Origin: Escherichia coli
Lineage (GTDB): Bacteria; Pseudomonadota; Gammaproteobacteria; Enterobacterales; Enterobacteriaceae
Length of the DNA stretch: 64,000 nucleotides
Strand: one strand, 5' to 3'
Assembly: GCF_024502345.1 (NCBI RefSeq)
Contig: NZ_JALDNN010000001.1
The notes below the pieces were generated by a model, which ran no database searches, was not told where the DNA came from, and saw only the letters and a list, made by a program, of their open reading frames with translations. Made by a program: the position numbers and the translations under genes. Numbering within the stretch: position 1 is the first letter of the stretch; each line of letters opens with the position of its first letter. Of this stretch, positions 26,700 to 60,318 are shown piece by piece.

Positions 26700-27139
26700 A
26701 GTAAGTACAAAACCTATTCGTTGTATGACAAATGTCACAATTCGATCATGGATAAATCGGGGCAAAAATGCAATGTTGCAGCACTATTTATCTCATATTA
26801 TTTGAGGGTAATAACCTCACATTATCCCTGAATTAAAAGTGGTAATAATAAAACATTATTTAAGAAATATCGCATGTGGAGACACTATATTAAATATTGT
26901 CAACCTAAAGAAACTCCTAAAAACCATATTGAATGACACTTAATATAATTCTTAAAAATAGCCAATTACCGAATTGTTATCTTGCCTGCTATTCCGTTAG
27001 CTGTAACACTTCCTCCTGCATTATTGGAAAGCCAATATTCAATTACCATAATGTCACCTTATATTCGGAAGTTAATTTCCGTAATAACCCTTTCTCATCA
27101 ACGACTGCATGCTGAGAGGGTGTGAAAAATTAAACTAAA

Positions 27140-27180
27140 TCAGTGTATTGGTAGCTAAAAAGCCAGGGGCGGTAGCGTGT
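27140..27180 (+). promoter_or_regulatory. JUMPstart element with ops site (GGCGGTAGCGTG at 27168..27179) in the wza leader
   Basis: ggtagctaaaaagccaggggcggtagcgtg matches the JUMPstart/ops (RfaH recruitment) consensus; lies about 180 bp upstream of wza. Confidence 0.85.
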
Positions 27181-27357: not shown

Positions 27358-28497
27358 ATGATGAAATCCAAAATGAAATTGATGCCATTATTGGTGTCAG
27401 TAACCTTGATAAGCGGTTGCACAGTACTTCCGGGCAGCAATATGTCGACGATGGGCAAAGACGTCATCAAACAGCAGGACGCTGATTTCGATCTCGACAA
27501 AATGGTGAATGTTTATCCGCTGACCCCGCGCCTGATTGACCAATTACGCCCACGCCCGAATGTAGCGCGCCCCAATATGACGCTGGAAAGTGAGATCGCG
27601 AATTACCAGTATCGCGTCGGGCCGGGGGACGTTCTTAATGTCACCGTCTGGGATCACCCGGAACTCACCACGCCAGCCGGTCAGTACCGCAGCTCCAGCG
27701 ACACCGGCAACTGGGTACAGCCTGACGGCACTATGTTTTACCCGTATATCGGCAAGGTCCACGTAGTCGGGAAAACGCTCGCTGAAATCCGCAGTGATAT
27801 TACCGGGCGCTTAGCGACGTACATCGCTGACCCGCAGGTGGACGTTAATATCGCCGCCTTCCGCTCACAAAAGGCCTATATCTCCGGTCAGGTGAATAAA
27901 TCCGGTCAACAGGCGATCACCAACGTGCCACTGACTATTCTCGACGCCATCAACGCCGCAGGTGGCCTGACCGACACCGCTGACTGGCGCAACGTGGTGT
28001 TAACACACAATGGTCGTGAAGAACGCATTTCTTTGCAGGCGCTGATGCAAAACGGCGACCTCAATCAGAACCGACTGCTTTATCCCGGCGATATTCTCTA
28101 CGTGCCGCGTAATGATGATCTGAAAGTGTTTGTGATGGGTGAAGTGAAGAAACAGAGCACCCTGAAAATGGACTTTAGCGGCATGACCCTGACTGAAGCC
28201 CTGGGCAATGCTGAAGGCATCGACATGACCACCTCCAACGCCAGCGGCATCTTTGTCATTCGTCCGCTGAAAGGCGAGGGCGGGCGTAACGGCAAGATTG
28301 CCAATATCTACCAGCTGGATATGTCCGATGCGACGTCGCTGGTGATGGCGACAGAATTCCGCCTGCAACCTTATGACGTGGTGTATGTCACCACCGCCCC
28401 GGTTTCCCGCTGGAACCGTCTGATCAATCAGTTGCTGCCAACTATTAGCGGTGTCCGTTACATGACGGATACAGCCAGCGACATTCATAACTGGTAA
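27358..28497 (+). CDS. wza: Colanic acid outer membrane export lipoprotein Wza
   Basis: 379-aa ORF with lipoprotein signal ([21 protein letters not shown]). Confidence 0.96.
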
Positions 28498-28502
28498 TCG
28501 TC

Positions 28503-28946
28503 ATGTTTAACAACATCTTAGTTGTCTGTGTCGGCAATATTTGCCGTTCCCCGACGGCGGAACGCTTACTGCAACGTTATCACCCGGAGCTGAAAGTGGA
28601 GTCCGCTGGACTCGGCGCGCTGGTCGGTAAGGGCGCTGATCCTACCGCTATCAGCGTCGCCGCAGAACATCAACTGTCTCTGGAAGGTCACTGTGCACGG
28701 CAAATCAGCCGCCGCCTGTGTCGCAACTATGACCTGATTTTGACCATGGAAAAGCGCCATATCGAACGCTTATGCGAGATGGCACCTGAGATGCGCGGCA
28801 AAGTGATGCTGTTTGGTCACTGGGATAACGAATGTGAAATCCCCGATCCGTATCGCAAAAGCCGGGAAACGTTTGCAGCGGTGTACACATTACTTGAACG
28901 GTCTGCCCGCCAGTGGGCGCAGGCATTGAACGCAGAGCAGGTATAA
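28503..28946 (+). CDS. wzb: Low-molecular-weight protein-tyrosine phosphatase Wzb
   Basis: 147-aa ORF with CVGNICRSP motif. Confidence 0.96.
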   Translation: MFNNILVVCVGNICRSPTAERLLQRYHPELKVESAGLGALVGKGADPTAISVAAEHQLSLEGHCARQISRRLCRNYDLILTMEKRHIERLCEMAPEMRGKVMLFGHWDNECEIPDPYRKSRETFAAVYTLLERSARQWAQALNAEQV

Positions 28947-28948
28947 GA

Positions 28949-31111
28949 ATGACAGAAAAAGTAAAACAACATGCCGCTCCGGTAACGGGCAGTGATGAAA
29001 TCGATATTGGTCGCCTGGTCGGCACCGTCATTGAAGCGCGCTGGTGGGTGATTGGCATCACCGCTGTATTTGCCCTCTGTGCTGTGGTTTACACTTTCTT
29101 CGCCACGCCGATTTATAGTGCCGACGCACTGGTACAAATCGAACAAAACAGCGGCAATTCGTTAGTGCAGGACATTGGCTCGGCATTAGCCAACAAACCG
29201 CCTGCATCGGACGCCGAGATCCAGTTGATTCGTTCGCGTCTGGTGCTTGGTAAAACGGTGGACGATCTAGACCTCGATATTGCGGTGAGCAAAAACACGT
29301 TCCCGATTTTCGGTGCGGGTTGGGATCGCCTGATGGGACGTCAGAACGAGACGGTGAAAGTGACCACCTTTAACCGCCCGAAAGAGATGGCGGACCAGGT
29401 GTTTACGCTTAATGTGCTGGATGACAAAAACTACACTCTGAGCAGTGATGGCGGCTTTAGCGCCCGTGGGCAAGCGGGCCAGATGCTGAAAAAAGAAGGC
29501 GTCACGCTGATGGTTGAAGCCATTCACGCCCGCCCGGGCAGTGAGTTTACCGTCACCAAATACTCCACGTTGGGGATGATCAACCAACTGCAAAACAGCC
29601 TGACGGTAACGGAGAACGGCAAAGACGCAGGCGTACTGAGCCTGACTTATACCGGTGAAGATCGCGAACAGATCCGCGACATTCTTAACAGCATCGCCCG
29701 TAACTATCAGGAACAAAATATTGAGCGCAAATCGGCGGAAGCGTCGAAAAGCCTCGCTTTCCTCGCGCAACAGTTACCGGAAGTACGTAGCCGCCTCGAT
29801 GTTGCCGAAAACAAACTGAATGCCTTCCGTCAGGATAAAGATTCTGTTGATCTGCCGCTGGAAGCGAAAGCGGTGCTCGATTCGATGGTGAACATCGACG
29901 CGCAGTTGAACGAACTGACCTTTAAAGAGGCGGAAATCTCCAAGCTGTACACCAAAGTTCACCCCGCGTACCGCACGCTGCTGGAGAAACGTCAGGCGCT
30001 GGAAGACGAAAAAGCCAAACTTAATGGTCGCGTAACGGCGATGCCGAAAACCCAGCAGGAAATTGTCCGTCTGACCCGCGATGTCGAGTCTGGTCAGCAG
30101 GTCTATATGCAACTGCTGAATAAAGAGCAGGAGCTGAAAATCACCGAAGCCAGCACCGTCGGCGATGTGCGCATTGTTGACCCGGCAATCACCCAGCCAG
30201 GTGTACTGAAACCGAAGAAAGGGCTGATTATCCTTGGGGCGATTATTCTTGGCCTGATGCTCTCTATCGTGGGTGTGCTGCTGCGCTCGTTGTTTAATCG
30301 CGGCATCGAAAGCCCGCAGGTGCTGGAAGAACACGGTATCAGCGTCTATGCCAGCATCCCGTTGTCGGAATGGCAGAAAGCGCGCGATAGCGTCAAAACC
30401 ATCAAAGGGATTAAACGCTATAAACAGAGCCAGCTACTGGCGGTGGGGAATCCAACCGATCTGGCGATTGAAGCCATCCGTAGTCTGCGTACCAGTTTGC
30501 ACTTCGCGATGATGCAGGCGCAGAACAATGTGTTGATGATGACCGGGGTTAGCCCGTCAATCGGTAAAACCTTTGTCTGCGCCAACCTGGCGGCGGTGAT
30601 CAGCCAGACCAATAAACGCGTGTTGTTGATCGACTGCGATATGCGCAAAGGCTACACCCACGAGCTGTTGGGCACTAATAACGTTAATGGCCTGTCGGAA
30701 ATTCTGATTGGTCAGGGCGATATTACTACCGCTGCTAAACCGACCTCTATTGCCAAATTTGACCTGATCCCGCGCGGTCAGGTGCCGCCAAATCCTTCTG
30801 AACTGTTGATGAGCGAACGCTTTGCCGAACTGGTGAACTGGGCGAGTAAAAACTATGACCTGGTGTTGATTGATACGCCGCCGATTCTGGCAGTGACCGA
30901 TGCGGCAATTGTTGGTCGTCATGTTGGAACCACGTTAATGGTGGCGCGTTATGCGGTCAACACATTGAAAGAAGTGGAAACCAGTCTGAGCCGCTTTGAG
31001 CAAAACGGTATTCCGGTGAAAGGGGTGATTCTGAACTCCATCTTCCGCCGCGCCAGCGCGTATCAGGATTATGGCTATTACGAATACGAATATAAGTCGG
31101 ATGCGAAATAA
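28949..31111 (+). CDS. wzc: Tyrosine autokinase / polysaccharide co-polymerase Wzc
   Basis: Start set at MTEKVKQHAAPVTG (720 aa); Walker A GVSPSIGKT and C-terminal Tyr-rich tail YQDYGYYEYEYKSD. Confidence 0.95.
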   Translation: MTEKVKQHAAPVTGSDEIDIGRLVGTVIEARWWVIGITAVFALCAVVYTFFATPIYSADALVQIEQNSGNSLVQDIGSALANKPPASDAEIQLIRSRLVLGKTVDDLDLDIAVSKNTFPIFGAGWDRLMGRQNETVKVTTFNRPKEMADQVFTLNVLDDKNYTLSSDGGFSARGQAGQMLKKEGVTLMVEAIHARPGSEFTVTKYSTLGMINQLQNSLTVTENGKDAGVLSLTYTGEDREQIRDILNSIARNYQEQNIERKSAEASKSLAFLAQQLPEVRSRLDVAENKLNAFRQDKDSVDLPLEAKAVLDSMVNIDAQLNELTFKEAEISKLYTKVHPAYRTLLEKRQALEDEKAKLNGRVTAMPKTQQEIVRLTRDVESGQQVYMQLLNKEQELKITEASTVGDVRIVDPAITQPGVLKPKKGLIILGAIILGLMLSIVGVLLRSLFNRGIESPQVLEEHGISVYASIPLSEWQKARDSVKTIKGIKRYKQSQLLAVGNPTDLAIEAIRSLRTSLHFAMMQAQNNVLMMTGVSPSIGKTFVCANLAAVISQTNKRVLLIDCDMRKGYTHELLGTNNVNGLSEILIGQGDITTAAKPTSIAKFDLIPRGQVPPNPSELLMSERFAELVNWASKNYDLVLIDTPPILAVTDAAIVGRHVGTTLMVARYAVNTLKEVETSLSRFEQNGIPVKGVILNSIFRRASAYQDYGYYEYEYKSDAK

Positions 31112-31134
31112 CGACGCCTGCATTCGCACCGCCC

Positions 31135-31170
31135 CGTAGGCCGGATAAGGCGCTCACGCCGCATCCGGCA
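31135..31170. repeat. REP element between wzc and wcaA
   Basis: gtaggccggataaggcgctcacgccgcatccggca. Confidence 0.75.
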
Positions 31171-31203
31171 AGCAAACCAGCTCATAAGCCGGGAGAACAA
31201 CCT

Positions 31204-32043
31204 ATGAAAGATAATCCGCTGATCTCAATCTATATGCCAACCTGGAACCGCCAACAACTGGCGATTCGGGCGATAAAATCGGTCCTGCGCCAGGACTACA
31301 GCAACTGGGAGATGATCATCGTGGATGATTGCTCCACCTCCTGGGAACAACTGCAACAGTACGTCACCGCCCTCAACGATCCGCGTATCACTTACATCCA
31401 CAACGATATTAACAGCGGGGCGTGCGCGGTACGTAACCAGGCTATTATGCTGGCGCAAGGGGAATACATTACCGGGATCGATGACGATGACGAATGGACA
31501 CCCAACCGCCTGAGCGTCTTCCTCGCCCATAAACAGCAACTGGTCACTCACGCCTTTTTGTACGCTAACGACTACGTATGCCAGGGAGAAGTTTATTCCC
31601 AACCAGCAAGCTTACCACTGTATCCCAAATCGCCGTACTCACGCCGCCTGTTCTATAAACGCAATATCATTGGCAATCAGGTTTTTACCTGGGCGTGGCG
31701 TTTCAAAGAGTGCTTGTTCGATACCGAACTGAAAGCAGCACAGGATTACGACATCTTCCTGCGGATGGTGGTGGAGTATGGCGAACCGTGGAAAGTGGAA
31801 GAGGCGACGCAGATCCTGCATATCAATCACGGTGAAATGCAGATCACCTCGTCACCGAAAAAATTCTCCGGGTACTTCCACTTTTACCGCAAGCACAAAG
31901 ATAAATTTGACCGTGCAAGCAAAAAATATCAGCTGTTTACCCTCTACCAGATCCGCAATAAACGTATGACCTGGCGCACTTTGCTGACGCTGCTGTCGGT
32001 GCGTAACGGCAAACGTCTGGCTGATGGTATTCGGGGGCGCTAA
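31204..32043 (+). CDS. wcaA: Colanic acid glycosyltransferase WcaA (GT2)
   Basis: 279-aa ORF, ISIYMPTWNR...DDCS GT2 signature. Confidence 0.93.
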   Translation: MKDNPLISIYMPTWNRQQLAIRAIKSVLRQDYSNWEMIIVDDCSTSWEQLQQYVTALNDPRITYIHNDINSGACAVRNQAIMLAQGEYITGIDDDDEWTPNRLSVFLAHKQQLVTHAFLYANDYVCQGEVYSQPASLPLYPKSPYSRRLFYKRNIIGNQVFTWAWRFKECLFDTELKAAQDYDIFLRMVVEYGEPWKVEEATQILHINHGEMQITSSPKKFSGYFHFYRKHKDKFDRASKKYQLFTLYQIRNKRMTWRTLLTLLSVRNGKRLADGIRGR

Positions 32044-32045
32044 AG

Positions 32046-32534
32046 ATGCTGGAAGATCTGCGTGCCAACAGCTGGAGTTTACGCCCGTGCTGCATGGTTC
32101 TTGCCTATCGTGTTGCTCATTTTTGTTCGGTGTGGCGCAAAAAGAACGTCCTCAACAATCTGTGGGCGGCCCCGCTGCTGGTGCTGTATCGCATTATCAC
32201 CGAATGCTTTTTCGGTTATGAAATCCAGGCCGCCGCGACCATTGGCCGCCGCTTTACTATCCATCACGGTTACGCCGTAGTGATCAATAAAAACGTGGTA
32301 GCGGGGGATGATTTCACCATTCGCCACGGCGTCACTATCGGCAATCGTGGTGCCGATAACATGGCATGTCCACACATTGGCAACGGCGTCGAACTCGGTG
32401 CCAACGTCATTATTCTTGGTGATATCACGCTTGGTAACAACGTCACCGTGGGCGCGGGCAGCGTGGTGCTCGACTCTGTCCCGGACAACGCGCTGGTGGT
32501 GGGAGAAAAAGCGCGAGTGAAGGTAATTAAATGA
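32046..32534 (+). CDS. wcaB: Colanic acid acetyltransferase WcaB (hexapeptide repeat)
   Basis: 162-aa ORF with left-handed beta-helix hexapeptide repeats. Confidence 0.93.
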   Translation: MLEDLRANSWSLRPCCMVLAYRVAHFCSVWRKKNVLNNLWAAPLLVLYRIITECFFGYEIQAAATIGRRFTIHHGYAVVINKNVVAGDDFTIRHGVTIGNRGADNMACPHIGNGVELGANVIILGDITLGNNVTVGAGSVVLDSVPDNALVVGEKARVKVIK

Positions 32535-33748
32535 ATATTCTGCAATTTAATGTGCGACTGGCGGAAGGCGGGGCGGCAGGTGTGGCGTTAGATCTCCATC
32601 AGCGTGCGCTGCAACAGGGGCTGGCGTCACATTTTGTCTACGGCTACGGCAAAGGCGGCAAAGAGAGCGTCAGCCATCAGAACTATCCGCAGGTCATCAA
32701 ACATACGCCGCGGATGACCGCGATGGCGAACATTGCGTTGTTTCGTCTGTTTAATCGCGATCTGTTCGGCAATTTCAATGAGTTATATCGCACCATTACT
32801 CGCACCCCGGGGCCGGTGGTTCTGCATTTTCATGTGCTGCACAGCTACTGGCTAAATCTTAAGAGCGTGGTGCGCTTTTGCGAAAAGGTGAAAAACCATA
32901 AACCGGATGTCACTCTGGTCTGGACGCTGCACGACCACTGGAGCGTTACCGGGCGCTGCGCCTTTACCGACGGTTGTGAAGGCTGGAAAACGGGCTGCCA
33001 GAAATGCCCGACCTTAAATAACTATCCGCCGGTGAAGATTGATCGCGCACACCAACTGGTGGCGGGCAAACGCCAGTTATTTCGTGAGATGCTGGCGCTG
33101 GGCTGTCAGTTTATTTCCCCCAGCCAGCATGTGGCTGACGCTTTCAATAGTCTGTACGGGCCAGGGCGTTGCCGGATTATCAATAATGGTATTGATATGG
33201 CAACCGAAGCGATTCTGGCGGACTTGCCTCCGGTGCGCGAAACCCAGGGCAAGCCGAAAATCGCGGTGGTGGCGCATGACCTGCGTTACGACGGCAAAAC
33301 TAACCAGCAACTGGTGCGTGAGATGATGGCGCTGGGCGACAAAATCGAACTGCATACCTTTGGTAAGTTCTCGCCGTTCACCGCTGGTAACGTGGTTAAT
33401 CACGGCTTTGAAACCGACAAACGTAAGCTGATGAGCGCGCTCAATCAGATGGATGCGCTGGTATTCAGTTCTCGCGTCGATAACTACCCGCTGATTTTGT
33501 GTGAGGCGCTATCGATTGGCGTGCCGGTGATTGCCACCCATAGCGATGCGGCGCGTGAAGTGCTGCAAAAATCCGGCGGTAAAACCGTCAGTGAAGAAGA
33601 GGTGCTGCAACTAGTGCAGTTAAGCAAACCGGAAATCGCGCAGGCGATATTTGGTACCACGCTGGCTGAGTTCAGCCAACGCAGCCGCGCCGCCTACAGT
33701 GGACAACAGATGCTGGAGGAGTATGTCAACTTCTATCAGAATCTGTAG
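32531..33748 (+). CDS. wcaC: Colanic acid glycosyltransferase WcaC (GT4)
   Basis: 405-aa ORF, 4-bp overlap with wcaB. Confidence 0.93.
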   Translation: MNILQFNVRLAEGGAAGVALDLHQRALQQGLASHFVYGYGKGGKESVSHQNYPQVIKHTPRMTAMANIALFRLFNRDLFGNFNELYRTITRTPGPVVLHFHVLHSYWLNLKSVVRFCEKVKNHKPDVTLVWTLHDHWSVTGRCAFTDGCEGWKTGCQKCPTLNNYPPVKIDRAHQLVAGKRQLFREMLALGCQFISPSQHVADAFNSLYGPGRCRIINNGIDMATEAILADLPPVRETQGKPKIAVVAHDLRYDGKTNQQLVREMMALGDKIELHTFGKFSPFTAGNVVNHGFETDKRKLMSALNQMDALVFSSRVDNYPLILCEALSIGVPVIATHSDAAREVLQKSGGKTVSEEEVLQLVQLSKPEIAQAIFGTTLAEFSQRSRAAYSGQQMLEEYVNFYQNL

Positions 33749-34940
33749 CTACCTGCTGCTGCCGCTGATCTACCTGCTGGTTAACGTCAAAATCGCCCAG
33801 CTTGGCGAAAGTTTCCCCATCACTATCGTCACTTTTTTACCTGTCTTGTTACTGCTGTTTTTAGAACGCATCAGCGTTAAAAAATTGATGATTGCCTTAG
33901 GGATTGGTGCGGGACTCACGGCGTTTAACTACCTGTTTGGTCAGTCGCTGGATGCCGGTAAATACGTCACTTCAACCATGCTGTTTGTCTATATTGTGAT
34001 CATTATTGGCATGGTGTGGAGTATTCGTTTTAAAACAATTTCGCCACACAACCATCGCAAGATATTACGTTTCTTTTATCTGGTGGTCGGGCTGGTGGTG
34101 GCGCTGGCGGCGGTGGAGATGGCGCAAATTATCCTCACCGGCGGCAGCAGTATTATGGAGTCGATTTCGAAATATCTGATTTACAGCAACAGCTATGTGC
34201 TGAATTTCATCAAATTCGGCGGCAAGCGCACGACAGCACTTTATTTCGAACCGGCATTTTTCGCTCTGGCATTAATCTCAATTTGGCTCAGCATCAAACA
34301 GTTTGGTATCAAAACGCCTAAAACCGATGCTATGATTCTCGCAGGGATAATATTATCCGGATCGTTTTCAGGGGTTATGACCTTTATCCTGTTTTATTTG
34401 CTGGAGTGGGCATTTCAATATCTGAATAAAGAGGCGATTAAGAAAAAGTTACCGTTGGCATTGATTTCTCTGGCTGTATTCCTGGTTGGTGTGGTAATCG
34501 CGTTTCCTTATATTTCCACCCGTCTGGGCGATTTAGGTACGGAAGGATCGTCATCGTATTATCGTATTGTCGGTCCGCTGGTGATGGTCGGTTATTCTTT
34601 GACCCATATTGACGGTGTAGTCAGATTTGGCTCACTTTATGAATATGTCGCATCATTCGGAATATTTAACGGTGCGGATGTCGGAAAAACCATAGACAAT
34701 GGTTTGTATCTGCTGATTATTTATTTTTCCTGGTTCGCGGTGTTTTTATCGCTGTGGTACATGGGGGAAGTGATAAAAATGATGATCAACGCTTTTGGTG
34801 ATAACCGCAATTTTCGCGTGCAATTATATCTTTTTACTCCGGTATCGCTGTTTTTTACCGGTTCGATATTTAGCCCGGAATATGCATTTTTAATCGTCTG
34901 TCCGTTTATTTTGCGAAAAGCGTTAAATATTACGAGGTAA
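33723..34940 (+). CDS. wcaD: Putative colanic acid polymerase WcaD (multi-TM)
   Basis: Start set at [21 protein letters not shown] (405 aa); overlaps the wcaC 3' end by 26 nt. Confidence 0.9.
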
Positions 34941-34950
34941 GAATAAGAAC

Positions 34951-35697
34951 ATGTTGCTTAGCATAATCACTGTCGCGTTTCGTAACCTCGAAGGGATAGT
35001 CAAAACACATGCCTCGCTGGCGCATCTGGCGCAGGCGGAAGATATCAGCTTCGAATGGATTGTTGTCGATGGCGGTTCCAATGACGGCACCCGTGAGTAT
35101 CTGGAAAATCTCAATGGTATCTATAACCTACGCTTTGTCAGCGAGCCAGATAACGGTATCTATGACGCCATGAACAAAGGCATTGCGATGGCACAAGGCA
35201 AGTTCGCGTTGTTTCTCAACTCGGGCGATATTTTTCATCAGGATGCCGCAAATTTTGTCCGTAAGTTAAAAATGCAAAAAGATAACGTGATGATCACCGG
35301 CGATGCGCTGCTGGATTTTGGCGACGGGCATAAAATTAAGCGTAGTGCTAAACCGGGTTGGTATATTTATCACAGCCTGCCCGCCAGCCATCAGGCGATA
35401 TTTTTCCCGGTATCCGGCTTGAAAAAATGGCGTTATGACCTGGAATATAAAGTATCTTCCGATTACGCGCTGGCGGCTAAAATGTATAAAGCCGGTTATG
35501 CATTTAAAAAACTCAATGGCCTGGTGTCTGAATTTTCCATGGGTGGGGTATCAACCACCAATAATATGGAATTGTGTGCTGACGCCAAAAAAGTCCAACG
35601 GCAAATATTACATGTGCCTGGCTTCTGGGCAGAATTATCCTGGCATTTACGCCAACGTACTACCTCAAAGACGAAAGCCTTATATAACAAAAGCTGA
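34951..35697 (+). CDS. wcaE: Colanic acid glycosyltransferase WcaE (GT2)
   Basis: 248-aa ORF. Confidence 0.93.
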
Positions 35698-35712
35698 ATA
35701 TAAGGGAAAACG

Positions 35713-36261
35713 ATGCAAGATTTAAGCGGTTTCTCGGTGCCGAAAGGGTTCCGGGGCGGCAACGCTATTAAAGTGCAATTATGGTGGGCAGTACAGGCAA
35801 CAATATTTGCCTGGTCGCCACAAGTATTGTATCGCTGGCGGGCTTTTTTATTACGTTTATTCGGCGCAAAAATAGGAAAAAACGTAGTTATTCGTCCGTC
35901 AGTAAAAATTACCTATCCGTGGAAATTAACCTTAGGTGATTACGCGTGGGTCGGCGATGACGTCAATTTATATACCCTCGGTGAAATAACCATTGGCGCA
36001 CATTCGGTGATATCGCAAAAAAGTTATTTATGCACCGGTAGCCACGACCATGCAAGTCAACATTTCACCATTAACGCCACGCCTATTGTGATTGGCGAGA
36101 AATGCTGGCTGGCAACCGATGTCTTTGTTGCCCCAGGCGTCACAATCGGCGACGGCACCGTCGTGGGTGCACGAAGCAGTGTTTTTAAATCGCTTCCGGC
36201 AAATGTGGTTTGCCGGGGGAATCCCGCAGTGGTGATACGCGAACGCGTTGAAACTGAATAA
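35713..36261 (+). CDS. wcaF: Colanic acid acetyltransferase WcaF (hexapeptide repeat)
   Basis: 182-aa ORF. Confidence 0.93.
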   Translation: MQDLSGFSVPKGFRGGNAIKVQLWWAVQATIFAWSPQVLYRWRAFLLRLFGAKIGKNVVIRPSVKITYPWKLTLGDYAWVGDDVNLYTLGEITIGAHSVISQKSYLCTGSHDHASQHFTINATPIVIGEKCWLATDVFVAPGVTIGDGTVVGARSSVFKSLPANVVCRGNPAVVIRERVETE

Positions 36262-36286
36262 ATTCAAAAATACAGAGGAATAAGAC

Positions 36287-37408
36287 ATGTCAAAAGTCGC
36301 TCTCATCACCGGTGTAACCGGACAAGACGGTTCTTACCTGGCAGAGTTTCTGCTGGAAAAAGGTTACGAGGTGCATGGTATTAAGCGTCGCGCATCGTCA
36401 TTCAACACCGAGCGCGTGGATCACATTTATCAGGATCCGCACACCTGCAACCCGAAATTCCATCTGCATTATGGCGACCTGAGTGATACCTCCAACCTGA
36501 CGCGCATTTTGCGTGAAGTACAGCCGGATGAAGTGTACAACCTGGGGGCAATGAGCCACGTTGCGGTTTCTTTTGAGTCACCGGAATATACCGCTGACGT
36601 CGACGCGATGGGTACGCTGCGCCTGCTCGAGGCGATCCGCTTCCTCGGTCTGGAAAAGAAAACCCGTTTCTATCAGGCTTCCACCTCTGAACTGTATGGT
36701 CTGGTGCAGGAAATTCCGCAGAAAGAAACCACGCCGTTCTACCCGCGATCTCCGTATGCGGTCGCCAAACTGTACGCCTACTGGATCACCGTTAACTACC
36801 GCGAATCCTACGGCATGTACGCCTGCAACGGTATTCTCTTCAACCATGAATCCCCGCGCCGTGGCGAAACCTTCGTTACCCGCAAAATAACCCGCGCAAT
36901 CGCCAACATCGCCCAGGGGCTGGAGTCGTGCCTGTACCTCGGCAATATGGATTCCCTGCGTGACTGGGGCCATGCCAAAGACTACGTAAAAATGCAGTGG
37001 ATGATGCTGCAACAGGAACAGCCAGAAGATTTCGTTATTGCTACCGGCGTTCAGTACTCCGTGCGTCAGTTCGTAGAAATGGCGGCAGCACAGCTGGGCA
37101 TCAAACTGCGCTTTGAAGGCACGGGCGTTGAAGAGAAGGGCATTGTGGTTTCCGTCACCGGGCATGACGCGCCGGGCGTTAAACCGGGGGATGTGATTAT
37201 CGCTGTTGACCCGCGTTACTTCCGTCCGGCTGAAGTTGAAACGCTGCTCGGTGACCCGACCAAAGCGCACGAAAAACTGGGCTGGAAACCGGAAATCACC
37301 CTCAGAGAGATGGTGTCTGAAATGGTGGCTAATGACCTCGAAGCGGCGAAAAAACACTCTCTGCTGAAATCTCACGGCTACGACGTGGCGATCGCGCTGG
37401 AGTCATAA
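36287..37408 (+). CDS. gmd: GDP-mannose 4,6-dehydratase
   Basis: 373-aa [35 protein letters not shown]. Confidence 0.97.
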
Positions 37409-37410
37409 GC

Positions 37411-38376
37411 ATGAGTAAACAACGCATTTTTATCGCTGGCCATCGCGGAATGGTCGGTTCCGCCATCACGCGGCAGCTCGAACAGCGCGGTGATGTGGAA
37501 CTGGTATTACGCACCCGCGACGAGCTGAACCTGCTGGACAGCCGCGCCGTGCATGATTTCTTTGCCAGCGAACGTATTGACCAGGTCTATCTGGCGGCGG
37601 CGAAAGTGGGCGGCATTGTTGCCAACAACACCTATCCGGCGGATTTCATCTACCAGAACATGATGATTGAGAGCAACATCATTCACGCCGCGCATCAGAA
37701 CGACGTGAACAAACTGCTGTTTCTCGGATCGTCCTGTATCTACCCGAAACTGGCAAAACAGCCGATGGCAGAAAGCGAGCTGTTGCAGGGCACGCTGGAG
37801 CCGACCAACGAGCCTTATGCCATTGCCAAAATCGCCGGGATCAAACTGTGCGAATCTTATAACCGTCAGTACGGACGCGATTACCGCTCGGTCATGCCGA
37901 CCAACCTGTACGGGCCGCACGACAACTTCCATCCGAGTAACTCGCATGTGATCCCAGCATTGCTGCGTCGCTTCCACGAGGCGACGGCACAGAATGCGCC
38001 GGACGTGGTGGTATGGGGCAGCGGTACGCCGATGCGTGAATTTCTGCACGTCGATGATATGGCGGCGGCGAGCATTCATGTCATGGAGCTGGCGCACGAA
38101 GTCTGGCTGGAGAACACCCAGCCGATGCTGTCGCACATTAACGTCGGCACGGGCGTTGACTGCACTATCCGCGAGCTGGCGCAAACCATCGCCAAAGTGG
38201 TGGGTTACAAAGGTCGGGTGGTTTTTGATGCCAGCAAACCGGATGGCACGCCGCGCAAACTGCTGGATGTGACGCGCCTGCATCAGCTTGGCTGGTATCA
38301 CGAAATCTCACTGGAAGCGGGGCTTGCCAGCACTTACCAGTGGTTCCTTGAGAATCAAGACCGCTTTCGGGGGTAA
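37411..38376 (+). CDS. fcl: GDP-L-fucose synthase
   Basis: 321-aa [22 protein letters not shown]. Confidence 0.97.
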
Positions 38377-38858
38377 TGATGTTTTTACGTCAGGAAGACT
38401 TTGCCACGGTAGTGCGCTCCACACCGCTTGTCTCTCTCGACTTTATTGTCGAGAACAGTCGCGGCGAGTTTCTGCTTGGCAAAAGAACCAACCGCCCGGC
38501 GCAGGGTTACTGGTTTGTGCCGGGAGGGCGCGTGCAGAAAGACGAAACGCTGGAAGCCGCATTTGAGCGGCTGACGATGGCGGAACTGGGGCTGCGTCTG
38601 CCGATAACAGCAGGCCAGTTTTACGGTGTCTGGCAGCACTTTTATGACGATAACTTCTCCGGCACGGATTTCACCACTCACTATGTGGTGCTCGGTTTTC
38701 GCTTCAGAGTCGCTGAAGAAGATCTGCTACTGCCGGATGAGCAGCATGACGATTACCGCTGGCTGACGCCGGACGCGCTGCTCGCCAGTAACGATGTTCA
38801 CGCTAACAGCCGCGCCTATTTTCTCGCTGAGAAGCGTACCGGAGTACCCGGATTATGA
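38376..38858 (+). CDS. gmm: GDP-mannose mannosyl hydrolase (Nudix)
   Basis: About 160 aa (start at 38376 or 38379), Nudix-like. Confidence 0.92.
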
Positions 38859-40078
38859 AAATACTGGTCTACGGCATTAACTACTCGCCGGAGTTAACGG
38901 GCATCGGCAAATACACCGGAGAGATGGTGGAATGGCTTGCGGCACAAGGTCATGAGGTGCGGGTCATTACCGCACCGCCTTACTACCCGCAATGGCAGGT
39001 GGGTGAGAACTATTCCGCCTGGCGCTACAAACGAGAAGAGGGGGCCGTCACGGTGTGGCGCTGCCCGCTGTACGTGCCAAAACAGCCGAGCACCCTGAAA
39101 CGCTTGTTGCATCTCGGCAGTTTTGCCGTCAGCAGTTTCTTTCCACTGATGGCGCAACGTCGCTGGAAGCCGGATCGCATTATTGGCGTAGTGCCAACGC
39201 TGTTTTGCACGCCGGGAATGCGCCTGCTGGCGAAACTCTCTGGTGCGCGTACCGTGCTGCATATTCAGGATTACGAAGTGGATGCCATGCTGGGGCTGGG
39301 CCTTGCCGGAAAAGGCAAAGGCGGCAAAGTGGCACAGCTGGCGACGGCGTTCGAACGTAGCGGACTACATAACGTCGATAACGTCTCCACGATTTCGCGT
39401 TCGATGATGAATAAAGCCATCGAAAAAGGCGTGGCGGCGGAAAACGTCATTTTCTTCCCAAACTGGTCGGAAATTGCCCGTTTTCAGCATGTCGCAGAGG
39501 CCGATGTTGATGCCCTTCGTAACCAGCTTGGCCTGCCGGATAACAAAAAAATCATTCTTTACTCCGGCAATATTGGTGAAAAGCAGGGGCTGGAAAACGT
39601 TATTGAAGCTGCCGATCGTCTGCGCGATGAACCGCTGATTTTTGCCATTGTCGGGCAGGGCGGCGGCAAAGCGCGGCTGGAAAAAATGGCGCAGCAGCGT
39701 GGACTGCGCAACATGCAATTTTTCCCGCTGCAATCGTATGACGCTTTACCCGCACTGCTGAAGATGGGCGATTGCCATCTGGTGGTGCAAAAACGCGGCG
39801 CGGCAGATGCCGTATTGCCGTCGAAACTGACCAATATTCTGGCGGTAGGCGGTAACGCGGTGATTACCGCAGAAGCCCACACCGAACTGGGGCAGCTTTG
39901 CGAAACCTTTCCAGGCATTGCGGTTTGCGTAGAACCGGAATCGGTCGAGGCGCTGGTGGCGGGGATTTGCCAGGCGCTCCTGCTGCCCAAACACAACACG
40001 GTGGCACGTGAATATGCCGAACGCACGCTCGATAAAGAGAACGTGTTACGTCAATTTATAAATGATATTCGGGGATAA
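38855..40078 (+). CDS. wcaI: Colanic acid glycosyltransferase WcaI (GT4)
   Basis: 407-aa ORF. Confidence 0.93.
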
Positions 40079-40080
40079 TT

Positions 40081-41517
40081 ATGGCGCAGTCAAAACTCTA
40101 TCCAGTTGTGATGGCAGGTGGCTCCGGTAGCCGCTTATGGCCGCTTTCCCGCGTACTTTACCCCAAGCAGTTTTTATGCCTGAAAGGCGATCTCACCATG
40201 CTGCAAACCACCATCTGCCGCCTGAACGGCGTGGAGTGCGAAAGCCCGGTGGTGATTTGCAATGAGCAGCACCGCTTTATTGTCGCGGAACAGCTGCGTC
40301 AACTGAACAAACTCACCGAGAACATTATTCTCGAACCGGCAGGGCGTAACACTGCACCGGCCATTGCGCTGGCGGCGCTGGCGGCAAAACGTCATAGCCC
40401 GGAGATCGACCCGTTAATGTTGGTATTGGCGGCGGATCATGTGATTGCCGATGAAGACGCGTTCCGTGCCGCCGTGCGTAATGCCATGCCGTATGCCGAA
40501 GCGGGCAAGCTGGTGACCTTCGGCATTGTGCCGGATCTACCTGAAACCGGATATGGCTATATTCGTCGCGGTGAAGTATCTGCGGGTGAGCAGGATACGG
40601 TGGCCTTTGAAGTGGCGCAGTTTGTCGAAAAACCGAATCTGGAAACCGCCCAGGCCTATGTGGCAAGCGGCGAATATTACTGGAACAGCGGCATGTTCCT
40701 GTTCCGCGCCGGACGCTATCTCGAAGAACTGAAAAAATATCGCCCGGATATTCTCGATGCCTGTGAAAAAGCGATGAGCTCCGTCGATCCGGATCTTGAT
40801 TTTATTCGTGTGGATGAAGAAGCGTTTCTCGCCTGCCCGGAAGAGTCGGTGGATTACGCGGTCATGGAACGTACGGCAGATGCTGTTGTGGTGCCGATGG
40901 ATGCGGGCTGGAGCGATGTTGGTTCCTGGTCTTCATTATGGGAGATCAGCGCCCACACCGCCGAGGGCAACGTTTGCCACGGCGATGTGATTAATCACAA
41001 AACTGAAAACAGCTATGTGTATGCCGAATCTGGCCTGGTCACCACCGTCGGGGTGAAAGATCTGGTAGTGGTGCAGACCAAAGATGCGGTGCTGATTGCC
41101 GACCGTAACGCGGTGCAGGATGTGAAAAAAGTGGTCGAGCAGATCAAAGCCGATGGTCGCCATGAGCATCGGGTGCATCGCGAAGTGTATCGTCCGTGGG
41201 GCAAATATGACTCTATCGACGCGGGCGACCGCTACCAGGTGAAACGCATCACCGTGAAACCGGGCGAGGGCTTGTCGGTACAGATGCACCATCACCGCGC
41301 GGAACACTGGGTAGTGGTCGCGGGAACGGCAAAAGTCACCATTGATGGTGATATCAAACTGCTTGGTGAAAACGAGTCCATTTATATTCCGCTGGGGGCG
41401 ACGCACTGCCTGGAAAACCCGGGGAAAATTCCGCTCGATTTAATTGAAGTGCGCTCCGGCTCTTATCTCGAAGAGGATGATGTGGTGCGCTTCGCGGATC
41501 GCTACGGACGGGTGTAA
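40081..41517 (+). CDS. cpsB: Mannose-1-phosphate guanylyltransferase (ManC)
   Basis: 478-aa [27 protein letters not shown]. Confidence 0.96.
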
Positions 41518-41520
41518 ACG

Positions 41521-41640
<120 letters not shown>

Positions 41641-41709
41641 TAAATAACGACAAAAACAAAATTGGCCGTTTCGGTCAGGGCCAACTATTGCCTGAAAAAG
41701 GGTAACGAC

Positions 41710-43080
41710 ATGAAAAAATTAACCTGCTTTAAAGCCTATGATATTCGCGGGAAATTAGGCGATGAACTGAATGAAGATATCGCCTGGCGCATTGGTCGCG
41801 CCTATGGCGAATTTCTCAAACCGAAAACCATTGTGTTAGGCGGTGATGTCCGTCTCACCAGCGAAACCTTAAAACTGGCGCTGGCAAAAGGTTTACAGGA
41901 TGCGGGCGTTGACGTGCTGGATATCGGTATGTCCGGCACCGAAGAGATCTATTTCGCCACGTTCCATCTCGGCGTGGATGGCGGCATTGAAGTCACCGCC
42001 AGCCATAATCCGGTGGATTATAACGGCATGAAGCTGGTGCGCGAAGGGGCTCGCCCGATCAGCGGTGATACCGGACTGCGCGACGTCCAGCGTCTGGCTG
42101 AAGCCAACGACTTTCCTCCCGTCGATGAAACCAAACGCGGTCGCTATCAGCAAATCAACCTGCGTGACGCTTACGTTGATCACCTGTTCGGTTATATCAA
42201 TGTCAAAAACCTCACGCCGCTCAAGCTGGTGATTAACTCCGGGAACGGCGCAGCGGGTCCGGTGGTGGACGCCATTGAAGCCCGCTTTAAAGCACTCGGC
42301 GCGCCCGTGGAATTAATCAAAGTGCACAACACGCCCGACGGGAATTTCCCCAACGGTATTCCTAACCCGCTACTGCCGGAATGTCGCGACGGCACCCGCA
42401 ATGCGGTCATCAAACACGGCGCAGATATGGGCATTGCCTTTGATGGCGATTTTGACCGCTGTTTCCTGTTTGACGAAAAAGGGCAGTTTATTGAGGGCTA
42501 TTACATTGTCGGCCTGCTGGCAGAAGCATTCCTCGAAAAAAATCCCGGCGCGAAGATCATCCACGATCCACGTCTCTCCTGGAACACCGTTGATGTGGTG
42601 ACGGCCGCGGGCGGCACGCCGGTGATGTCGAAAACCGGACACGCCTTTATTAAAGAACGTATGCGCAAGGAAGACGCCATCTACGGTGGCGAAATGAGCG
42701 CTCACCATTACTTCCGCGATTTCGCTTACTGCGACAGCGGCATGATCCCATGGCTGCTGGTCGCCGAACTGGTGTGCCTGAAAGGAAAAACGCTGGGCGA
42801 ACTGGTGCGCGACCGGATGGCAGCGTTTCCGGCAAGCGGTGAGATCAACAGCAAACTGGCGCAACCCGTTGAGGCGATTAACCGCGTCGAACAGCATTTT
42901 AGCCGCGAGGCGCTGGCGGTGGATCGTACCGATGGCATCAGCATGACCTTTGCCAACTGGCGCTTTAATCTGCGCTCCTCCAACACCGAACCGGTGGTGC
43001 GGTTGAATGTGGAATCGCGCGGTGATGTGCCGCTGATGGAAGCGCGAACGCGAACTCTGCTGACGTTGCTGAACGAGTAA
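41710..43080 (+). CDS. cpsG: Phosphomannomutase (ManB)
   Basis: Start set at [17 protein letters not shown] (456 aa); the track ORF is extended 16 codons upstream. Confidence 0.95.
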
Positions 43081-43084
43081 TGTC

Positions 43085-43200
43085 ATTACTTTCCCCCTCA
43101 CCCTGACGCTCTACTGCCTGCGAAGAGAAGTGAGCACGGAACTTTCTTCTCCCCCTCGCCCCTTTGGGGAGAGGGCCGGGGTGAGGGGCGAGGCGACAAT
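43085..43200. repeat. GC-rich nested inverted repeat between cpsG and wcaJ
   Basis: ccccctcaccc (near 43093) pairs with ggggtgagggg (near 43180); inner cctcgcccc/ggggcgagg and cccctttgggg palindromes. Confidence 0.6.
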
Positions 43201-43215
43201 AGAACAGGAACAACG

Positions 43216-44610
43216 ATGACAAATCTAAAAAAGCGCGAGCGAGCGAAAACCAATGCATCGTTAATCTCTATGGTGCAACGCTTTTCAGATATCACCATCA
43301 TGTTTGCCGGACTATGGCTGGTTTGCGAAGTGAGCGGCCTGTCATTCCTCTACATGCACCTGTTGGTGGCGCTGATTACGCTGGTGGTGTTCCAGATGCT
43401 GGGCGGCATTACCGATTTTTATCGCTCATGGCGCGGTGTTCGGGCAGCGACAGAATTTGCCCTGTTGCTACAAAACTGGACCTTAAGCGTGATTTTCAGC
43501 GCCGGACTGGTGGCGTTCAACAATGATTTCGACACGCAACTGAAAATCTGGCTGGCGTGGTATGGGCTGACCAGCATCGGACTGGTGGTTTGCCGTTCAT
43601 GTATTCGCATTGGGGCGGGCTGGCTGCGTAATCATGGCTATAACAAGCGTATGGTCGCGGTGGCGGGGGATTTAGCCGCCGGACAAATGCTGATGGAGAG
43701 CTTCCGTAATCAGCCGTGGTTAGGGTTTGAAGTGGTGGGCGTTTACCACGACCCGAAACCGGGTGGCGTTTCTAACGACTGGGCGGGCAATCTGCAACAG
43801 CTGGTCGAGGATGCGAAAGCGGGCAAGATTCATAACGTCTATATCGCGATGCAAATGTGCGACGGCGCACGAGTGAAAAAACTGGTCCATCAACTGGCGG
43901 ACACCACCTGTTCGGTGCTGCTGATCCCCGACGTCTTTACCTTCAACATTCTCCATTCACGTCTCGAAGAGATGAACGGCGTTCCGGTGGTGCCGCTGTA
44001 CGATACGCCGCTTTCCGGGGTTAACCGCCTGCTAAAACGTGCGGAAGATATTGTGCTGGCGACGCTTATTCTGCTGCTGATCTCCCCGGTGCTGTGCTGT
44101 ATTGCGCTGGCGGTAAAACTCAGTTCACCAGGACCGGTTATTTTCCGCCAGACTCGCTATGGCATGGATGGCAAGCCGATCAAAGTGTGGAAGTTCCGTT
44201 CGATGAAAGTGATGGAGAACGACAAAGTCGTGACTCAGGCGACGCAGAACGATCCGCGCGTCACCAAAGTGGGGAACTTTCTGCGCCGCACCTCGCTGGA
44301 CGAATTGCCGCAGTTTATCAATGTGCTGACCGGGGGGATGTCGATTGTCGGGCCACGTCCACACGCGGTGGCGCATAACGAACAGTATCGCCAGCTCATT
44401 GAAGGCTACATGCTGCGCCACAAAGTGAAACCGGGCATTACCGGCTGGGCGCAGATTAATGGCTGGCGCGGCGAAACCGACACGCTGGAGAAAATGGAAA
44501 AACGCGTCGAGTTCGACCTTGAGTACATCCGCGAATGGAGCGTCTGGTTCGATATCAAAATCGTTTTCCTGACGGTATTCAAGGGCTTCGTTAACAAAGC
44601 GGCATATTGA
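43216..44610 (+). CDS. wcaJ: Undecaprenyl-phosphate glucose-1-phosphate transferase WcaJ
   Basis: 464-aa ORF, polyprenyl-phosphate hexose-1-P transferase family (C-terminal PGITGWAQINGWRGET). Confidence 0.95.
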   Translation: MTNLKKRERAKTNASLISMVQRFSDITIMFAGLWLVCEVSGLSFLYMHLLVALITLVVFQMLGGITDFYRSWRGVRAATEFALLLQNWTLSVIFSAGLVAFNNDFDTQLKIWLAWYGLTSIGLVVCRSCIRIGAGWLRNHGYNKRMVAVAGDLAAGQMLMESFRNQPWLGFEVVGVYHDPKPGGVSNDWAGNLQQLVEDAKAGKIHNVYIAMQMCDGARVKKLVHQLADTTCSVLLIPDVFTFNILHSRLEEMNGVPVVPLYDTPLSGVNRLLKRAEDIVLATLILLLISPVLCCIALAVKLSSPGPVIFRQTRYGMDGKPIKVWKFRSMKVMENDKVVTQATQNDPRVTKVGNFLRRTSLDELPQFINVLTGGMSIVGPRPHAVAHNEQYRQLIEGYMLRHKVKPGITGWAQINGWRGETDTLEKMEKRVEFDLEYIREWSVWFDIKIVFLTVFKGFVNKAAY

Positions 44611-44611
44611 T

Positions 44612-46090
44612 ATGAGCTTACGTGAAAAGACCATCAGCGGCGCGAAGTGGTCGGCGATTGCCACGGTGATCATCATCGGCCTCGGGCTGGTGCAGATGAC
44701 CGTGCTGGCGCGGATTATCGACAACCACCAGTTCGGCCTGCTTACCGTGTCGCTGGTGATTATCGCGCTGGCAGATACGCTTTCTGACTTCGGTATCGCT
44801 AACTCGATTATTCAGCGAAAAGAAATCAGTCACCTTGAACTCACCACGTTGTACTGGCTGAACGTCGGGCTGGGGCTTGTGGTGTGCGTGGCGGTGTTTT
44901 TGTTGAGTGATCTCATTGGTGACGTGCTGAATAACCCGGACCTGGCACCGTTGATTAAAACATTGTCGCTGGCGTTTGTGGTGATCCCCCACGGGCAACA
45001 GTTCCGCGCGTTGATGCAGAAGGAGCTCGAGTTCAACAAAATCGGCATGATCGAAACCAGCGCGGTGCTGGCGGGCTTTACTTTTACGGTGGTTAGCGCC
45101 CATTTCTGGCCGCTGGCGATGACCGCGATCCTCGGTTATCTGGTCAATAGTGCGGTAAGAACGCTGCTGTTTGGCTACTTTGGCCGCAAAATTTATCGCC
45201 CCGGTCTGCACTTCTCGCTGGCGTCGGTGGCACCGAACTTACGCTTTGGTGCCTGGCTGACGGCGGACAGCATCATCAACTATCTCAACACCAACCTTTC
45301 AACGCTGGTGCTGGCGCGTATTCTCGGCGCGGGCGTGGCCGGGGGATACAACCTGGCGTACAACGTGGCCGTTGTGCCGCCGATGAAGCTGAACCCGATC
45401 ATCACCCGCGTGTTGTTTCCGGCATTCGCCAAAATTCAGGACGACACCGAAAAGCTGCGCGTCAACTTCTACAAGCTGCTGTCGGTGGTGGGGATTATTA
45501 ACTTTCCAGCGCTGCTGGGGCTGATGGTGGTGTCGAATAACTTCGTACCGCTGGTCTTTGGTGAGAAGTGGAACAGCATTATTCCGGTGCTGCAATTGCT
45601 GTGTATTGTGGGTCTGCTGCGCTCCGTAGGTAACCCGATTGGCTCGCTGCTGATGGCGAAAGCGCGGGTCGATATCAGCTTTAAATTCAACGTATTCAAA
45701 ACATTTCTGTTTATTCCGGCGATTGTTATAGGTGGGCAGATGGCGGGCGCAATCGGCGTCACGCTTGGTTTCCTGCTGGTGCAGATTATCAACACCATTC
45801 TGAGTTACTTCGTGATGATTAAACCGGTTCTTGGTTCCAGTTATCGCCAGTACATCCTGAGTTTATGGCTGCCGTTTTATCTCTCGCTGCCGACGCTGGG
45901 GGTCAGTTATGCGCTGGGCATTGTACTGAAAGGGCAACTGGCGCTGGGGATGCTGCTGGCGGTGCAAATAGCCGCGGGCGTGCTGGCGTTTGTGGTGATG
46001 ATTGTGCTGTCGCGCCATCCGCTGATGGTGGAAGTGAAGCGCCAGTTTTGTCGCAGCGAAAAAATGAAAATGCTTTTACGGGCGGGGTGA
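44612..46090 (+). CDS. wzxC: Colanic acid repeat-unit flippase WzxC
   Basis: 492-aa multi-TM ORF. Confidence 0.93.
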   Translation: MSLREKTISGAKWSAIATVIIIGLGLVQMTVLARIIDNHQFGLLTVSLVIIALADTLSDFGIANSIIQRKEISHLELTTLYWLNVGLGLVVCVAVFLLSDLIGDVLNNPDLAPLIKTLSLAFVVIPHGQQFRALMQKELEFNKIGMIETSAVLAGFTFTVVSAHFWPLAMTAILGYLVNSAVRTLLFGYFGRKIYRPGLHFSLASVAPNLRFGAWLTADSIINYLNTNLSTLVLARILGAGVAGGYNLAYNVAVVPPMKLNPIITRVLFPAFAKIQDDTEKLRVNFYKLLSVVGIINFPALLGLMVVSNNFVPLVFGEKWNSIIPVLQLLCIVGLLRSVGNPIGSLLMAKARVDISFKFNVFKTFLFIPAIVIGGQMAGAIGVTLGFLLVQIINTILSYFVMIKPVLGSSYRQYILSLWLPFYLSLPTLGVSYALGIVLKGQLALGMLLAVQIAAGVLAFVVMIVLSRHPLMVEVKRQFCRSEKMKMLLRAG

Positions 46091-46094
46091 GTTG

Positions 46095-46440
46095 TTGTTT
46101 TCGGTTTCGGCAATGGTTGCCGGATGCGGCGTAAAACGCCTTATCCATCCTACGGTTCTGTGCTCGGGACCTGTAGGCCTGATAAGACGCGTCAGCGTCG
46201 CATCAGGCACTGAATGCCGGATGCGGCGTGAACGCCTTATCCGGCCTACGGTTCTGTGCTCGGGTCTTGTAGGCCTGATAAGACGCGCCAGCGTCGCATC
46301 AGGCACTGAATGCCGGATGCGGCGTGAACGCCTTATCCATCCTACGGTTCTGTGCTTGGATCTTGTAGGCCTGATAAGACGCGCCAGCGTCGCATCAGGC
46401 AAAAAACGGCAACGAACACAACAAACACAGCCTCACCTGG
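46095..46440. repeat. REP array (BIME cluster) between wzxC and wcaK
   Basis: Six alternating units of gccggatgcggcgtgaacgccttatcc...cctacg and gtaggcctgataagacgcg(c/t)cagcgtcgcatcaggc. Confidence 0.85.
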
Positions 46441-46461
46441 CATCAAATTTATGAGGAAAAA

Positions 46462-47742: not shown

Positions 47743-48959
47743 AGGTCGGCTTCTTTTTACTGAAATTTCCGTTGTCGTCAGAAACCTTCGTCCTCAATCA
47801 AATTACCGCGTTTATTGATATGGGATTTGAGGTGGAGATTGTTGCGCTGCAAAAAGGCGACACCCAGAACACCCACGCGGCATGGACGAAATACAACCTT
47901 GCCGCCAGAACCCGTTGGTTACAGAACGAACCTGCGGGCAAAGTAGCGAAACTGCGCCACCGCGCCAGCCAGACGTTACGTGGCATTCATCGTAAAAATA
48001 CCTGGCAGGCGCTCAACCTCAAACGCTATGGTGCCGAGTCGCGGAACCTGATTTTGTCTGCCATTTGTGGTCAGGTCGCAACACCGTTTCATGCCGATGT
48101 CTTTATCGCTCATTTTGGCCCTGCGGGGGTAACCGCAGCAAAACTACGCGAACTGGGTGTCATTCGCGGCAAAATTGCCACTATCTTTCACGGTATTGAT
48201 ATCTCCAGTCGGGAAGTGCTCAACCACTACACTCCCGAATATCAACAACTGTTTCGCCGTGGCGACCTGATGTTACCAATAAGCAATCTGTGGGCCGGAA
48301 GGCTGCAAAAAATGGGCTGCCCGAGGGAAAAAATTGCCGTATCGCGCATGGGCGTGGACATGACGCGTTTTAGCCCGCGTCCGGTGAAAGCGCCCGCAAC
48401 GCCGCTAGAAATCATTTCCGTCGCACGCTTAACCGAGAAAAAAGGCCTGCATGTGGCGATTGAAGCCTGCCGTCAGTTGAAAGAGCAGGGCGTGGCATTT
48501 CGCTATCGCATCCTCGGCATTGGCCCGTGGGAACGACGCCTGCGCACGCTCATCGAACAATATCAACTGGAAGATGTGGTGGAGATGCCTGGCTTTAAAC
48601 CGAGCCATGAAGTGAAAGCGATGCTCGACGACGCGGATGTCTTCCTGTTGCCATCGGTTACAGGTGCGGATGGTGATATGGAAGGCATTCCGGTGGCGCT
48701 AATGGAAGCGATGGCGGTCGGCATTCCGGTGGTTTCTACTCTGCATAGCGGAATACCGGAACTGGTGGAGGCTGACAAATCCGGCTGGCTGGTGCCTGAG
48801 AACGATGCTCGCGCACTGGCGCAACGCCTGGCGGCATTTAGCCAACTGGACACCAACGAACTGGCTCCGGTTATCAAACGTGCTCGCGAAAAAGTCGAAC
48901 ACGATTTTAACCAGCAGGTGATTAATCGAGAACTCGCCAGCTTGTTGCAGGCTTTATAG
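47739..48959 (+). CDS. wcaL: Colanic acid glycosyltransferase WcaL (GT4)
   Basis: 406-aa ORF, 4-bp overlap with wcaK. Confidence 0.93.
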
Positions 48960-48969
48960 AGGAGAACGT

Positions 48970-54348: not shown

Positions 54349-54361
54349 AAGTGAGTGCTAA

Positions 54362-56526: not shown

Positions 56527-56532
56527 ACTAAT

Positions 56533-59563: not shown

Positions 59564-59568
59564 CTCCT

Positions 59569-60309: not shown

Positions 60310-60318
60310 TAAGGAGGA

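Follow-up and report, generated by a model that had tools for sequence, protein, structure and literature searches.

The window analysed here is a 64,000-nt (64-kb) segment of the E. coli chromosome that spans the colanic acid and O112ab O-antigen region, with genes in the order baeS-mdtDCBA, ibs/sib, yegL to asmA, yegH (on the minus strand), wza to wcaM, gne, galF, wzx to galE, and gnd. Two long operons for surface or secreted structures lie within it, the colanic acid (cps) operon of 23 kb and the O-antigen operon of 8.4 kb. The cps operon has a GC content of approximately 52-57%. That of the O-antigen cluster is 26-32%, and DNA of such low GC content is of the kind coated by H-NS. Between yegH and wza lies an intergenic region of 592 nt that shows 100% identity to its counterpart in K-12 MG1655; of 5426 complete E. 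coli genomes, 4818 carry it. The 5' part of the O-antigen region (52654-56600) is 100% identical to O112ab strains; ten genomes match most of the O-antigen length that was queried, eight of them at approximately 100% identity, and the galF-wzx leader variant of the window is common to about 1250 E. coli genomes. The rfaH gene, which is expected in E. coli, lies outside the window. Two further RNA features were noted in the region. Three tandem Sib antitoxin RNAs (RF00113, 140-145 bits) are found at 11240-12043 on the minus strand, between mdtA and yegL; since only two Ibs toxin genes are annotated at the Sib locus of CFT073, an extra ibs/sib repeat unit seems to be present here. Within the colanic acid operon, the Rfam 'algC RNA' motif RF02929 occurs at 41656-41705 (+), directly 5' of the phosphomannomutase gene cpsG and immediately after a pair of REP sequences; it scores 78.2 bits, the gathering score being 33.8.

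A search of both strands of the whole window revealed two exact copies of the 12-mer GGCGGTAGCGTG, one in the yegH-wza leader and one in the galF-wzx leader, and no further copy on either strand when up to one mismatch was allowed. In 100 dinucleotide-preserving shuffles the mean number of exact copies was 0.02, and two or more copies were obtained in none of the 100. Both sites agree with the 12-nt ops consensus GGCGGTAGnnTG, and each copy forms the 3' terminus of a JUMPstart of the full 39 nt (CAGTGTATTGGTAGCTAAAAAGCCAGGGGCGGTAGCGTG at site 1 and CAGTCTACTGGTAGCTGTTAAGCCAGGGGCGGTAGCGTG at site 2). The two JUMPstarts share the same base at 34 of 39 positions, with similarity in the flanks no higher than background, and both span positions 1-38 of the 38-position Rfam model RF01707, scoring well above its gathering score of 35. 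Both elements are intergenic and lie 5' of the first ORF of their respective operons, with the ops on the non-template (coding) strand and all downstream genes on the plus strand as well; 178 nt separate the end of JUMPstart 1 from the wza ATG (27358), and 32 nt separate the end of JUMPstart 2 from the ATG of the O112ab wzx (52957). The original prediction had placed two copies of the RfaH recruitment motif in these leaders, each inside a JUMPstart-like sequence; its coordinates were right to within 1 nt, and both surrounding sequences proved to be full-length members of the Rfam family. Taken together, the shuffles, the 39-nt similarity, the Rfam threshold and the conservation of position across genera effectively rule out a chance origin of both matches. 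Coordinates of these and the other features are given in Table 1.

Table 1. Positions of the JUMPstart/ops elements, the operons and the leader and repeat features in the window
Feature	Position	Strand	Evidence or remarks
RcsAB-box-like TAATATAATTCTTA, putative, upstream of ops 1	26942..26955	+	10/14 vs TaAGaatatTCctA
Candidate wza promoter, TTGCCT-N17-AACACT	26982..27010	+	conservation
Second candidate wza promoter, TTGGAA-N17-CATAAT	27024-27052	+	consensus scan
JUMPstart 1, yegH-wza leader, colanic acid operon	27141..27179	+	RF01707, 57.3 bits; conservation
ops 12-mer GGCGGTAGCGTG, RfaH recruitment and pause site, wza leader	27168..27179	+	exact match
Colanic acid operon wza-wzb-wzc-wcaA to wcaM, presumed target of ops 1	27358..50364	+	ORFs; RefSeq annotation
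Single REP hairpin, wzc-wcaA gap	31140..31169	.	inside cps operon
REP pair (BIME), cpsB-cpsG gap	41519..41619	.	fold z = -4.6
boxC-like GC-rich palindrome, cpsG-wcaJ gap	43085-43195 (about)		-58.5 kcal/mol, z = -3.5
Array of about six REPs, wzxC-wcaK gap	46119..46400	.	fold z = -6.9
galF	51760-52653		
Hairpin just 3' of galF, probable galF terminator	52693..52750	+	-20.2 kcal/mol, z = -2.1
JUMPstart 2, galF-wzx leader, O112ab O-antigen operon	52886..52924	+	RF01707, 53.2 bits
ops 12-mer GGCGGTAGCGTG, wzx leader	52913..52924	+	exact match
O112ab O-antigen operon (wzx, wzy, glycosyltransferases, C5-epimerase, galE), presumed target of ops 2	52957..61332	+	

The 8-mer core GGCGGTAG occurs six times in the window, compared with 1.36 expected, and none of 100 shuffles reached six. 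The four copies outside the two leaders, at 8295 (-), 15683 (-), 26581 (+) and 39841 (+), all fall within coding regions and do not have the TG of positions 11-12, so that a third or hidden ops was rejected; they probably reflect codon composition. The one inside wcaI (39841) lies on the non-template strand. Intragenic ops-like sites that do not load RfaH are also known from CFT073 (PMC9765446).

An alignment of 13 wza leaders from several genera revealed a series of conserved islands, at 26898-26922, 26939-26957, 26981-27012, 27227-27262 and 27319-27360, in addition to the JUMPstart itself. The second of these, which is nearly invariant among the aligned leaders, surrounds TAATATAATTCTTA, a putative RcsAB box when compared with the published consensus TaAGaatatTCctA (PMC3950696). 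A promoter consensus scan of both leaders returned weak candidates only, among them the second candidate in Table 1; the conservation of the TTGCCT-N17-AACACT block suggests that it may serve as the wza promoter. The last island, a block of about 40 nt (GCACAGGATAATTACTCTGCCAAAGTGATAAATAAACAATG) that extends up to the wza ATG, is almost invariant across genera and contains no Shine-Dalgarno sequence; the stretch from 27319 to 27357 might conceivably be dedicated to the loading of ribosomes coupled to RfaH, or be bound by a small RNA. On the O-antigen side, the arms of the hairpin that follows galF, AACGGCAG and CTGCCGTT, co-vary across genera, and this hairpin is the probable galF terminator, which would place the O-antigen promoter between the hairpin and JUMPstart 2. 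The T-run that trails the hairpin is weakened in the window (TTATTC), and transcription may therefore continue to some extent from galF into the O-antigen leader. In most relatives the galF leader carries a promoter-like block 5' of the JUMPstart, CTTGTTTC...GTAAGACAAT, which has diverged in the window. From the conserved promoter-like blocks and the data available for CFT073 we infer that both ops lie within a transcribed leader.

In order to follow the elements in other species, the pattern GCCAGGGGCGGTAGCGTG was scanned against one genome per species, giving at least 120 loci, almost all of them in Enterobacterales, which were classed by tblastn with the proteins of the window. Among the 120 matches listed, 39 have wza downstream, usually with a divergent yegH upstream, 40 have galF upstream, and 31 occur in other contexts; a distinct class of 10 was assigned to the T6SS hcp-tssH region, the context having been examined for L071 alone. 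Several species have one wza-type and one galF-type match, several of these pairs being on a single contig (L007/L008, L012/L013, L057/L058); in the Citrobacter youngae pair (L036/L037) the two matches come from different assemblies. The pairing of both contexts in several species indicates that the two-JUMPstart layout is ancestral and general. In the 13 aligned wza leaders, and likewise in the galF leaders, the JUMPstart stands out as an invariant island within leaders that are otherwise diverged across genera.

The loci assigned to the T6SS class (L011, L025, L028, L030, L069-L071, L076, L077 and L106) carry an ops-bearing element, ccTTATGGGCaTCGGTnnACGGCCAGGGGCGGTAGCGTG. In L071 this element lies between hcp and tssH, and the locus matches plasmid records from Pantoea, Rahnella, Enterobacter, Lelliottia and Scandinavium; the context agrees with the tssH ops reported for CFT073 (PMC9765446). 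Loci outside the enterobacteria, on MAGs or contigs of Opitutales, Arthrobacter, Erysipelotrichia, Spirochaetaceae and Actinomycetes, were discounted. Some of these have no JUMPstart-like 5' half and appear to be chance 18-mers, and those with a full JUMPstart appear to be enterobacterial contamination; in the Arthrobacter case a GalF of 97% identity is encoded just upstream.

Experimental data on these sites come from E. coli CFT073, in which RfaH was mapped by ChIP-seq (Hustmyer et al. 2022; PMC9765446). RfaH was loaded there at eight leader ops sites, wzx (O antigen) and wza-wcaM among them; the signal at leader ops was gone in the delta-rfaH strain, and sigma-70 peaks were located 5' of the ops (PMC9765446). 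In the absence of RfaH, the progression of RNA polymerase through the wzx unit, expressed as travelling ratios, fell to 0.1-0.34 of wild type (PMC9765446). At the wza ops, RfaH was detected only when hns and stpA had both been deleted (PMC9765446), because H-NS otherwise silences the wza promoter. A comparison of the leaders showed that the wza leader of the window is base-for-base identical to that of CFT073 from 27126 to the ATG, and that the O-antigen JUMPstart differs from the CFT073 copy at 5 positions, all of them outside the ops, so that the published binding data cover an identical site 1 and a near-identical site 2. In the CFT073 RefSeq annotation (L123, 23193-24777) wza carries a frameshift and wzb is interrupted by a stop codon, indicating that the colanic acid export module of the ChIP-seq strain has decayed while its leader is intact.

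We conclude, with a probability of about 0.9, that both motifs are functional ops within canonical 39-nt JUMPstarts in the leaders of the colanic acid and O112ab operons. RfaH control of both operons is well supported by the literature, by the CFT073 ChIP-seq and by the recurrence of the same two contexts across Enterobacterales. It had been predicted that both long operons are likely to be under RfaH antitermination, and the CFT073 data on identical or near-identical sites bear this out as far as sequence identity carries over; loading and action of RfaH in the present strain would be expected on the same grounds.

The steps by which RfaH would act at these sites are drawn from established knowledge of the protein, together with inference. 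RNA polymerase that has started at an upstream promoter would pause at the ops, where the exposed non-template strand would form a small hairpin that is read by RfaH. RfaH would then displace or exclude NusG and ride with the polymerase to the end of the operon, and while bound it would suppress pausing, Rho-dependent termination and the elongation blocks imposed by H-NS. Its C-terminal domain, once refolded, would recruit a ribosome via S10 to leader-proximal genes without a Shine-Dalgarno sequence. Initiation is controlled separately: RcsAB activates the wza promoter and H-NS silences it, and the O-antigen promoter is probably positioned between the galF terminator and the JUMPstart. Neither wza nor wzx, the first genes of the two operons, has a Shine-Dalgarno sequence (anti-Shine-Dalgarno duplexes of -1.6 and -2.1 kcal/mol, compared with -6 to -12 kcal/mol in many other genes of the window), a feature that fits ribosome recruitment via RfaH; most internal cps genes do have one. 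Together with the AT-rich O-antigen cluster, these first genes are consistent with the RfaH mechanism.

Two other explanations of the elements were considered. Rfam classifies RF01707 among the cis-regulatory RNAs and gives it a stem of 5 bp; the main function of the JUMPstart might accordingly be that of a structured 5' UTR RNA and not of a DNA signal for RfaH. Both copies can indeed form the cUGGu/gCCAg stem of the model, and where other species vary in the 5' arm (T or C, two positions), G-U or G-C pairing is retained. However, the 39-mers fold no better than shuffled sequences (z = -0.03 and -0.07), and RNAalifold on the 13 wza leaders gave a covariation term of -0.01, with no compensatory changes in the stem, although the 3' arm is fixed by the search pattern, which limits what covariation could show there. 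Folding and the 13-leader alignment provided neither thermodynamic support nor covariation for an RNA structure in the JUMPstart or in the 178-nt wza leader. Since published structural and ChIP work, as well as established knowledge, place the function in the non-template DNA strand (PMC9765446), a predominantly RNA-based role appears very improbable.

A less radical alternative is that the wza ops loads RfaH to little effect, with initiation through RcsAB dominating colanic acid expression and RfaH dependence clear only for the O-antigen operon. The GC content of the cps operon and the Shine-Dalgarno sequences of most of its internal genes speak for this, and suggest that the effect of RfaH on colanic acid may be modest; in CFT073 the wza unit was silenced at the level of initiation (PMC9765446), and RfaH has been described as only 'presumably' needed for cps (PMC3673037). 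Against it, the same paper holds that transcription downstream of wzc requires RfaH (PMC3673037), and the title of Navasa et al. 2014 (FEBS Letters), as cited elsewhere, points to RfaH control of colanic acid. The 39-nt element is also invariant across genera upstream of wza, at 39 loci among the matches listed, which argues for selection. We regard so small a contribution of RfaH to colanic acid expression as somewhat unlikely, and favour functional ops in both leaders.

The original prediction went on to claim that RfaH control explains why REP arrays and hairpins are tolerated within the colanic acid operon. The arrays themselves are real: five REP clusters were found in the window, three of them inside the cps operon, and Rfam naRNA4 matches fall at 46176-46342 within the wzxC-wcaK array. 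The concentration of three of five clusters in this operon, and the very high stability of their hairpins (z down to -6.9), would be compatible with a modification by RfaH being what permits them. The REP in the wzc-wcaA gap is moreover positioned like the stem-loop attenuator of the E. coli K30 group 1 capsule cluster, for which Rahn and Whitfield (2003) reportedly found that RfaH is needed for read-through. On the other hand, a terminator-like U-tract was found after none of the cps REP hairpins, and a search for intrinsic terminators inside the operons that RfaH might override gave matches at chance level (27 vs 23.5 and 12 vs 14.4), the only strong terminator found being located after gnd (62851-62877). 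REPs are present inside many operons outside RfaH control, so that RfaH is not needed to explain those of cps. Strain 442/2, also O112ab and otherwise 100% identical in the O-antigen region, has a 54-nt cpsG-wcaJ spacer with no boxC-like insert; its absence from so close a relative indicates recent gain or loss of the repeat, a pattern that resembles neutral turnover. As stated, the claim that RfaH accounts for REP tolerance is unsupported speculation, and we think it quite unlikely to be correct.

Such a link would be most plausible at the wzc-wcaA REP. Transcription might be attenuated in an RfaH-sensitive manner at this hairpin, and perhaps also at the arrays near 41.5 kb and at 46.1-46.4 kb, a suggestion that we hold to be equally doubtful. 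If true, the export genes wza-wzb-wzc would be expressed separately from the biosynthetic genes, and mobile REPs would have acquired the role of checkpoints in an operon controlled by RfaH, paralleling the K30 stem-loop. For annotation, the value of the present analysis is that both polysaccharide operons of an O112ab strain can be marked as RfaH targets, a status that bears on serum resistance, on capsule and LPS expression, and on the engineering of colanic acid production.

The JUMPstart was reportedly defined by Hobbs and Reeves in 1994 as an element of 39 bp that gene clusters for polysaccharides have in common. The JUMPstart/ops of the K-12 colanic acid leader is said to have been described by Stout and by Stevenson, both in 1996, and that of O-antigen (rfb) clusters downstream of galF by Marolda and Valvano in 1998. 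A passage in PMC9976346 likewise credits Stout 1996 with the JUMPstart in the colanic acid promoter region, and one in PMC12791035 credits Wang et al. 1998 with showing that O-antigen clusters are RfaH-regulated through the JUMPstart. Descriptions of the element, of both its positions in this region and of its mechanism go back to the 1990s, with genome-wide confirmation by ChIP-seq in 2022, and the window shows no departure from the known JUMPstart/RfaH system. Compared with the colanic acid (cps/wca) leader of E. coli K-12, there is no detectable difference in sequence, flanking genes or orientation, and the wza leader counterpart in CFT073, which is bound by RfaH in ChIP-seq (PMC9765446), is identical over the interval given above. 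Other O-antigen (rfb) clusters share the layout of galF, terminator hairpin, promoter region, JUMPstart and first gene, as well as the same ops 12-mer; the window differs from them in its serogroup, O112ab, and in its diverged promoter-like block. Its ops-to-wzx spacer of 32 nt is shorter than those of wzx, kps and rfa, for which 40-67 nt has been reported (PMC9765446). The remaining RfaH targets, namely waaQ/rfa, kps region 3, hlyCABD, F tra and the T6SS clusters, have the same ops core on the non-template strand of the leader, but differ from the two sites described here in the upstream half of the element and in the operons that it precedes.
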